From Escherichia coli (GTDB taxonomy: Bacteria; Pseudomonadota; Gammaproteobacteria; Enterobacterales; Enterobacteriaceae): a DNA stretch of 328 nt. The DNA lies in assembly GCF_003334385.1 (NCBI RefSeq), contig NZ_QOWN01000203.1; one strand, 5' to 3'. The notes under the pieces were generated by a model. That model had not been told where the DNA came from. It saw nothing but the letters and a program-made list of their open reading frames with translations, and ran no database searches. Below are positions 1-328 of this stretch, one piece after another. Positions within the stretch are counted from its first letter, which is position 1. Each line of letters starts with the position of its first letter. The position numbers were made by a program, and so were the translations under genes.

Positions 1-230
1 TGCACACCGGATTCCATCCCGCCATCGCGGGAACGCCGGGAAAGGACCACCACATTGCGGCGCAGTTTTCCCCTGCGCACCGGTGCCCGTGACACCACTT
101 CTTCTTTCAGTTCATTCGCCCCCGCGCGGGTTGCCTCACGCAGTACCCGGTTGTTTTCTGCACCACTCAGAAGCTGCAAATTACGGCTTATTTCTTCAAG
201 TCCCGAAAAATCCAGCAGGGTTTCGATCAT
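1..230 (-). CDS. Phage tail-component / head-tail joining protein, HK97 gp10 family (N-terminal 76 codons; 3' end lies beyond position 1)
   Basis: Minus-strand ORF starts at ATG (complement of 228-230) and stays open to the window edge. Translation: MIETLLDFSGLEEISRNLQLLSGAENNRVLREATRAGANELKEEVVSRAPVRRGKLRRNVVVLSRRSRDGGMESGV. The N-terminal 'gLeEl..L..L' stretch followed by 'RAPVRRGKLRRNV' matches my recollection of the HK97 gp10 family pattern (roughly 'aP.dTG.LrrSi'; Pfam PF04883 / TIGR01725). A GGGAGGGG Shine-Dalgarno sits 6 nt upstream of the ATG. Family assignment is from memory, not a search. Confidence 0.72.
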   Translation of the reverse strand, partial: MIETLLDFSGLEEISRNLQLLSGAENNRVLREATRAGANELKEEVVSRAPVRRGKLRRNVVVLSRRSRDGGMESGV

Positions 231-328
231 TTTTCCCCTCCCAGCCGACAGAGAATTTCCAGGCGCCCGCCGGTCGCATCCGGCACGGGCACCCCGACAA
301 CATTCAGGATACAGTCACGCCAGGGACC
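227..328 (-). CDS. C-terminal 33 codons plus stop of an upstream phage morphogenesis protein, possibly a head-tail adaptor / head closure protein (5' end lies beyond position 328)
   Basis: Minus-strand frame is open from the window edge (328) to TGA (complement of 227-229). Translation: GPWRDCILNVVGVPVPDATGGRLEILCRLGGEK*. The stop overlaps the downstream ATG (ATGA). The product name is inferred only from synteny, since head-tail adaptor genes commonly precede gp10-like genes in HK97-type clusters. I do not recognise the C-terminal sequence itself. Confidence 0.55.
   Translation of the reverse strand, partial: GPWRDCILNVVGVPVPDATGGRLEILCRLGGEK
235..242 (-). promoter_or_regulatory. Shine-Dalgarno ribosome-binding site for the gp10-like gene
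   Basis: Minus-strand sequence GGGAGGGG (complement of 235-242) lies 6 nt (after the GGAGG core) upstream of the ATG at 230-228, within the last codons of the upstream gene. Confidence 0.6.

Follow-up and report, generated by a model that had tools for sequence, protein, structure and literature searches.

The arginine-rich loop of an HK97 gp10-family tail completion protein from a Shiga-toxigenic Escherichia coli prophage

Does an arginine-rich stretch in the N-terminal part of a phage protein point to a particular function, or is it the ordinary state of the protein family? The question is raised by a 328-base stretch of Escherichia coli DNA (assembly GCF_003334385.1, contig NZ_QOWN01000203.1), the whole of which is called the window below. 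It carries parts of two genes, both on the minus strand, one of which encodes the first 76 residues of an HK97 gp10-like protein. The original prediction, made from the letters of the window, had noted the arginines of this fragment, an RRG motif where an acidic or polar 'dTG' was taken to be the family motif, and several CGG, AGG and ATA codons. On alignment, the basic stretch of residues 48-68 corresponds to the conserved positively charged loop and hairpin tip of the family, and the only lineage-specific features are an Arg-for-Lys shift and the substitution T53R. We consider it likely that this DNA comes from an HK97-like lambdoid prophage of Shiga-toxigenic E. coli (STEC) and specifies the N-terminal half of its tail completion protein, in which, by homology with phage 80α, the basic motif would form the DNA-end loop.

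Family identity and the basic motif

The minus-strand translation of window positions 1-230 (MIETLLDFSGLEEISRNLQLLSGAENNRVLREATRAGANELKEEVVSRAPVRRGKLRRNVVVLSRRSRDGGMESGV, 76 codons, beginning MIETLLDFSG) matches the PF04883 profile with an i-Evalue of 1.5e-8. The full protein of 148 amino acids (L001 8784-9230, minus strand; L001 and L002 are used here for prophage coordinates and L004 for those of HK97) reaches 80 bits on TIGR01725, for which the cut-off is 30.8, over profile positions 1-120 of 120, and it was by these two matches that the original assignment as gp10-like was borne out. It also matches phrog_5, 'tail completion or Neck1' (E=4.7e-35), and BLASTP aligns it with HK97 gp10, the founder of PF04883/TIGR01725, at 73% identity over 149 columns (E=2e-82). 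Ten core residues (G54, P50, L56, Y102, E107, G109, T110, P117, F118 and R120), each at least 90% conserved in 124 sequences for which G54 had served as the selection filter, are all kept in the query. Family membership, the fold and the position of the gene between the head-closure and tail-terminator genes are firmly established.

The Neck1 or tail completion class includes lambda gpZ, SPP1 gp16.1 and HK97 gp10. What is annotated in Shiga toxin (Stx)-type prophages as 'HK97 gp10 family putative morphogenesis protein' is a tail completion protein of the gpZ/gp16.1/gp51 class, which clears up the naming; beyond correct annotation the importance is slight, as the gene is already annotated, very common in prophages and from a well-known family. 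The window has a 100% match in the chromosome of the STEC strain 2013C-3033, where it lies in a prophage (NZ_CP027323.1). At 90% identity or more it is found in 1244 of 5426 complete E. coli genomes, about a quarter, as well as in Stx-converting phages, many of which (Stx1a-, Stx2a- and Stx2c-converting) are ~93% identical to it. Its own allele is rarer, with 26 records at 95% identity or more versus 1223 at 90-95%.

The count of 12 arginines among the 76 residues was confirmed, as was their clustering in the stretch singled out by the original prediction (VRRGKLRRNVVVLSRRSRDGG, residues 51-71, window 18-80), which holds seven; the densest 21-residue stretch, residues 48-68, holds eight. This clustering is weakly above chance, being equalled in 4% of trials when the 76 residues were shuffled, and the three RR pairs are unremarkable (P=0.24). 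The description as a strongly basic N-terminal region fits residues 45-70 only (net charge +8). It fails for the fragment overall, whose 14 basic and 11 acidic residues leave a net charge of only +3 because residues 1-44 are Glu-rich and net acidic. Net basicity was rejected as a special feature: by net charge the query lies below ~90% of its relatives, i.e. in the lowest 10%; the N-terminal part carries +3 where the median is +8, and the whole protein +5 where the median is +17. Its arginine content (14%) is surpassed by 18% of the relatives, and its lysine content (2%) is the lowest among all 124.

How common is the motif itself? Close homologues were taken as a set of 120 sequences. The distant set was formed from 2164 matches (E<=0.001) in a search of 1.84 billion proteins, as the best 150 representatives at 50% mutual identity or less, and the motif was counted in the 124 full-length representatives kept by the G54 filter (124/130); counts for each position are given in Table 1. 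Arg or Lys is the commonest state at positions 52, 55, 57 and 58, and the hairpin tip is basic in most relatives. An alignment with the basic motif as the common family state had been named beforehand as the observation that would speak against an unusual patch, and this is what the 124 relatives give. The 'dTG' of the original prediction is a fair description of distant members, position 52 being Asp in 23, Arg in 18 and Lys in 11 of the 70 most distant relatives (<33% identity); the acidic residue is nevertheless not conserved, and HK97 gp10 itself has Arg there. What stands of the contrast between RRG and 'dTG' is the second arginine, which replaces a Thr/Ser that is 85% conserved among the representatives. 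Close homologues usually read APVRTGKLKKNVVVVTQKSRRGEI, and the RRG...RR form is limited to the query's own clade of at least 92% identity. The suggestion of a lineage-specific variant of the motif therefore holds for T53R, which is confined to the Stx-phage clade and fixed in it.

Arginine for lysine, T53R and codon usage

The query differs from HK97 gp10 at 40 residues, among which six are Lys-to-Arg changes, with none in the reverse direction; Q65R, Q140R, S147R and T53R add to the arginines. Arginine thus counts 21 and lysine 3 in the query, versus 15 and 9 in HK97 gp10, the total being 24 in both and the net charge +5 versus +4. The same direction is seen beyond this gene. The neighbours from head closure to tape measure show 14 Lys-to-Arg versus 3 Arg-to-Lys changes relative to HK97, and the whole neck-tail module (L001 3676-9913 against L004 5219-11704) 20 versus 3 (sign test, P=0.0005). 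The guanine + cytosine (GC) content is 57.5% in the prophage late region versus 52.2% in the first 12 kb of HK97, and 56.8% versus 54.0% in the gene itself. The simplest reading is a charge-conserving compositional drift to GC-rich Arg codons across the neck-tail module, such that the arginine richness mirrors a Lys-to-Arg drift in a GC-richer phage lineage and brings no new function.

HK97 reads CGT ACC at positions 52-53, and of all Arg codons only the AGR pair can be reached from Thr by a single base change (ACR to AGR). As AGR offers the only single-step route from Thr, the rare AGG at R53 is best read as the trace of the Thr-to-Arg substitution.

Arginine is encoded in the window by CGC (5), CGT (3), CGG (3) and AGG (1), and isoleucine by one ATC and one ATA. 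Across 44 core genes of the host, taken from the same genome, CGG and AGG together account for 10.7% of the codons for arginine and ATA for 4.6% of those for isoleucine, against 35% and 15.7% in 16 late genes of the prophage. The full gp10-like gene has CGG/AGG at 7 of 21 Arg codons and ATA at 1 of 5 Ile codons; its CGG/AGG usage differs from that of the host (P=0.005) and is typical of the prophage late genes (P=0.64), so that a codon anomaly particular to this gene was rejected. The host does not favour CGG/AGG, as the comparison with its core genes proposed by the original prediction now tells, and the hint of horizontally acquired DNA drawn from CGG, AGG and ATA proved right, if trivially so: these codons are rare in host core genes, the DNA is a prophage, and they are the ordinary usage of prophage late genes.

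Two tRNA genes of the prophage were also observed (L002 9790-9951), downstream of a DNA methyltransferase gene and with an antiterminator gene further upstream. The first, with anticodon CAT, is a tRNA-Ile in the RefSeq annotation and would be of the lysidine type that reads AUA. The other is a tRNA-Arg with anticodon TCG. The two may have a bearing on the enrichment of ATA and CGA/CGG codons in the late genes.

A putative role at the DNA end

The AlphaFold2 (AF2) model of the protein (predicted local distance difference test score, pLDDT, 92.3) has helices at residues 9-20 and 23-48, a loop at 49-56, a hairpin formed by strands 60-66 and 72-78, a short helix at 103-108 and a C-terminal helix at 119-147. 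A profile of the 124 sequences, compared with solved structures, gave one match, chain P of 9mu2 (E=4.2e-8), which is gp51 of phage 80α and has the fold found in the query; this entry was assigned to the SaPI1/80α neck from the description returned by the fold search and from residue numbering that matches Kizziah et al. The profile alignment pairs T53-G54-N55 of 80α, part of W-T53-G54-N55-L-S-R-N-I, with R53-G54-K55 of the query, Y78 with Y102 and F81 with F105. A single-sequence phmmer search of the PDB had returned only designed 'Bagel' beta-propeller repeat proteins (E=1.2e-8, query residues 85-115, beyond the window); this candidate was rejected as the sum of eight sub-threshold repeats with per-domain i-Evalues >100, and it took the family profile to arrive at 9MU2.

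In the SaPI1/80α neck, a single gp51 lies in the lumen with Y78 and F81 stacked on the last DNA base pair, while the 5' phosphate of the DNA is gripped by N55 together with the backbone of the loop, the hairpin pairs with the N-termini of three tape measure proteins, and a positive face is turned to DNA and adaptor (Kizziah et al, 10.1101/2024.12.10.627806). By analogy, one copy of the gp10-like protein would be placed in the neck lumen, where the T/R-G-K loop and the conserved Y102 and F105 would close off the packaged DNA and grip it at its end, and thereby hold the genome ready for ejection. The motif would then be a loop facing the DNA end and the neck, with basic flanks that may contact phosphates or the acidic wall, and the basic patch probably sits at the DNA-end-gripping site inside the neck. 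This would make R52, R53, K55, R57, R58, Y102 and F105 candidate residues for genome gating in HK97-like and Stx phages.

Several points weigh against this placement. R52, R53 and K55 are put near DNA by sequence alignment, and the 124 representatives, as best matches to the query, are tilted towards its own branch of the family. A location in the virion is established for 80α only, a headful-packaging phage of Gram-positive bacteria whose protein is 18% identical to the query. In the prophage, an HNH endonuclease gene adjoins the terminase genes. An HNH gene beside terminase suggests HK97-like cos packaging, which would leave a DNA end with an overhang, whereas the end modelled in 80α is blunt. 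The beta-hairpin by which the 80α protein is held is absent from HK97-type adaptors, the authors call the in-neck location of HK97-type proteins unclear, and lambda gpZ is not seen in virion maps (10.1101/2024.12.10.627806). In T5, p143 was placed at the tail tip (T5 study).

The basic patch may have other partners. It is possible, if rather doubtful, that the loop and the hairpin tip bind protein, either the acidic inner wall of the neck (adaptor, head-closure and terminator rings) or the tape measure, and that the arginines serve protein-protein contacts. In 80α, the adaptor accounts for ~60% of the surface that interior and exterior neck proteins bury against each other, and the lumen of neck and tail is negatively charged (10.1101/2024.12.10.627806); in the AF2 model the motif is moreover predicted at the base of the loop. 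Yet N55 of 80α, aligned with K55, touches the DNA 5' phosphate together with the loop backbone, and the hairpin that makes the 80α contact is missing from HK97-type adaptors. Binding of protein and binding of DNA are, besides, not mutually exclusive. We find it unlikely that the HK97-like protein acts outside the neck lumen, at the tail tip like T5 p143 or transiently during assembly, with a patch that serves still another partner. gpZ and other tail completion proteins are indeed unseen in several neck maps, but the T5 authors note that p143 stands apart from the other predicted folds of tail completion proteins, and SPP1 gp16.1 is tail-associated and required for head-tail joining and DNA delivery.

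Could the arginines have been selected within the lineage? That T53R and the Lys-to-Arg swaps are adaptive in the Stx-phage clade, for instance through a tighter grip of the cos end, an adjustment to an adaptor or tape measure that has diverged, or evasion of a host defence by which this protein is sensed, seems to us quite improbable. We give equally little credence to the narrower proposal that T53R, just ahead of the conserved Gly in what is the phosphate-holding loop of 80α, and the all-arginine flank retune the grip or release of the cos end in Stx-type HK97-like phages, or reflect co-adaptation to a very different adaptor. Arg at position 53 in 0 of 124 representatives, at a site otherwise well conserved, and the fixation of the variant in a very successful clade (P0004 represents 1197 sequences) would favour adaptation, as would an adaptor that is 15% identical to HK97 gp6, versus 74% for the gp10-like protein, so that the partners differ. 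However, the Lys-to-Arg changes are directional beyond the gp10-like gene too (14 to 3), with higher GC and conserved charge, which argues for mutational or compositional drift, and Lys at position 53 in 6 of 124 relatives indicates that a basic residue is tolerated there.

Neighbouring genes and comparison with known systems

Table 1. Features of the window and residue counts at the motif positions (counts among the 124 representatives)
Feature	Window position	Strand	Remarks
HK97-gp10-family tail completion protein gene, codons 1-76 of 148	230..1	minus	ATG 230..228; gene exits the window at base 1; RefSeq WP_032270882.1
Head closure protein gene (upstream), last 33 codons and stop	328..227	minus	ends ...GGRLEILCRLGGEK*; TGA 229..227; WP_016232490.1
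Shine-Dalgarno-like GGAGG	241..237	minus	6 nt spacing to the gp10-like ATG, within the end of the head closure gene; read from sequence
Family motif APVRRGKLRRN, codons 49-59	86..54	minus	A-P-x-[R/D/K]-[T/S]-G-x-L-[K/R]-[K/R]-N; predicted loop that joins the long N-terminal helix to the beta-hairpin
R52 (CGC) and R53 (AGG) codons	77..72	minus	R53, clade-specific Thr-to-Arg; sole AGG codon of the window
Beta-hairpin: first strand, basic tip SRRSRDGG, start of second strand; codons 60-76	53..3	minus	AF2-predicted strands E60-66 and E72-78
Position 52, query R			R 39, D 35, K 19 of 124
Position 53, query R			T 85, S 21, K 6, R 0 of 124
Position 54, query G			selection filter, G in 124/130
Position 55, query K			K 33, R 29 of 124
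Position 57, query R			K 60, R 45 of 124
Position 58, query R			R 47, K 37 of 124

The late genes of the prophage are ordered as HNH endonuclease, small and large terminase, capsid and portal genes, head-tail adaptor, head closure, gp10-like, tail terminator, major tail subunit, chaperones, tape measure and tip proteins. The neighbours were assigned by independent profile matches: the adaptor to phrog_40 and TIGR01560, the head closure protein to phrog_25 (Hc1) and TIGR01563 (gp16_SPP1), and the downstream gene (L001 8443-8787) to phrog_347, tail terminator. RefSeq nevertheless calls this downstream gene 'tail completion protein gp17', which reflects a confusion of names discussed in the T5 and 80α papers (for 80α, 10.1101/2024.12.10.627806). 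The portal gene (L001 9910-12494) is annotated as a frameshifted pseudogene, so that this copy of the prophage may be defective; this 2.6-kb 'portal' gene and a 'major capsid protein' of 645 amino acids are both unusually large and stand in an unusual order. The 15% identity between the adaptor (L001 9587-9913) and HK97 gp6 (L004 5219-5545) comes from a global alignment, and its contrast with the ~74% of the adjoining gp10-like protein shows mosaicism inside the neck module.

The head closure and gp10-like genes overlap by ATGA. Their junction, GAAAAATGA (window 227-241, minus strand; L004 5850-5892), is also present in HK97 gp7/gp10, with a run of five A right before the stop where a -1 slip into the gp10 frame is possible in principle. 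Programmed frameshifting, brought up by fused database entries and by phrog_23409, was rejected: P0002, P0005 and P0008 enter the gp10 frame by way of indels or deletions at sites in the head-closure gene that lie upstream of the junction, the ordinary ATGA overlap with GGAGG upstream explains the junction, and no evidence for frameshifting was found there. phrog_23409 itself (264 positions, 'unknown function') is matched by the head closure protein on 1-98 and by the gp10-like protein on 117-264 (PHROGs; L001 8787-9577), and seems to derive from open reading frames (ORFs) in which head closure and gp10 were fused or wrongly called as one.

Frames 1 and 2 of the plus strand are stop-free over the entire window (1-328). 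An antisense ORF with a TTG start lies in the locus (141 amino acids, L001 8935-9360, plus strand), and the antisense strand of HK97 is likewise open, over 139 codons; we regard the plus-strand ORFs as probable shadow frames of GC-rich coding DNA. A search of Rfam with both strands of the window gave no family at E<=1.

Among the closest known systems is gp62 of Stx2a_WGPS6 (Pankowvirus), which differs from the query at 3 of 148 residues (D13E, D17N, V40E), is identical in the RRGKLRR motif and in codons 52-58, and whose phage has 93.6% nucleotide identity over the window; homologues occur in Stx1a, Stx2a and Stx2c phages. HK97 gp10 (NP_037704.1) is of near-equal length (149 versus 148 amino acids); its gene, too, is flanked by those for head closure and tail terminator and overlaps its upstream neighbour by ATGA. 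Its motif, APVRTGKLKKN, is also basic. SPP1 gp16.1 and lambda gpZ share class and gene position with the query and are likened to it by class, not by sequence. Their loss leads to non-infectious particles or failed head-tail joining (in part from 10.1101/2024.12.10.627806), and the predicted structure of the lambda protein has an extra beta domain (10.1101/2024.12.10.627806). Neither has a solved structure, 80α gp51 (PDB 9MU2 chain P) being the only solved member of the class. gp51 is shorter than the query (115 versus 148 amino acids), reads W-T-G-N where the query reads R-R-G-K, and has a loop ~20 residues shorter at the position of query residues 79-101; 80α packages by headful and its adaptor carries a lumenal hairpin, which HK97-type adaptors do not (10.1101/2024.12.10.627806). 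At 18% identity, the T-G motif, the stacking Tyr/Phe and the E-F-G-T motif of gp51 nevertheless align with the query.
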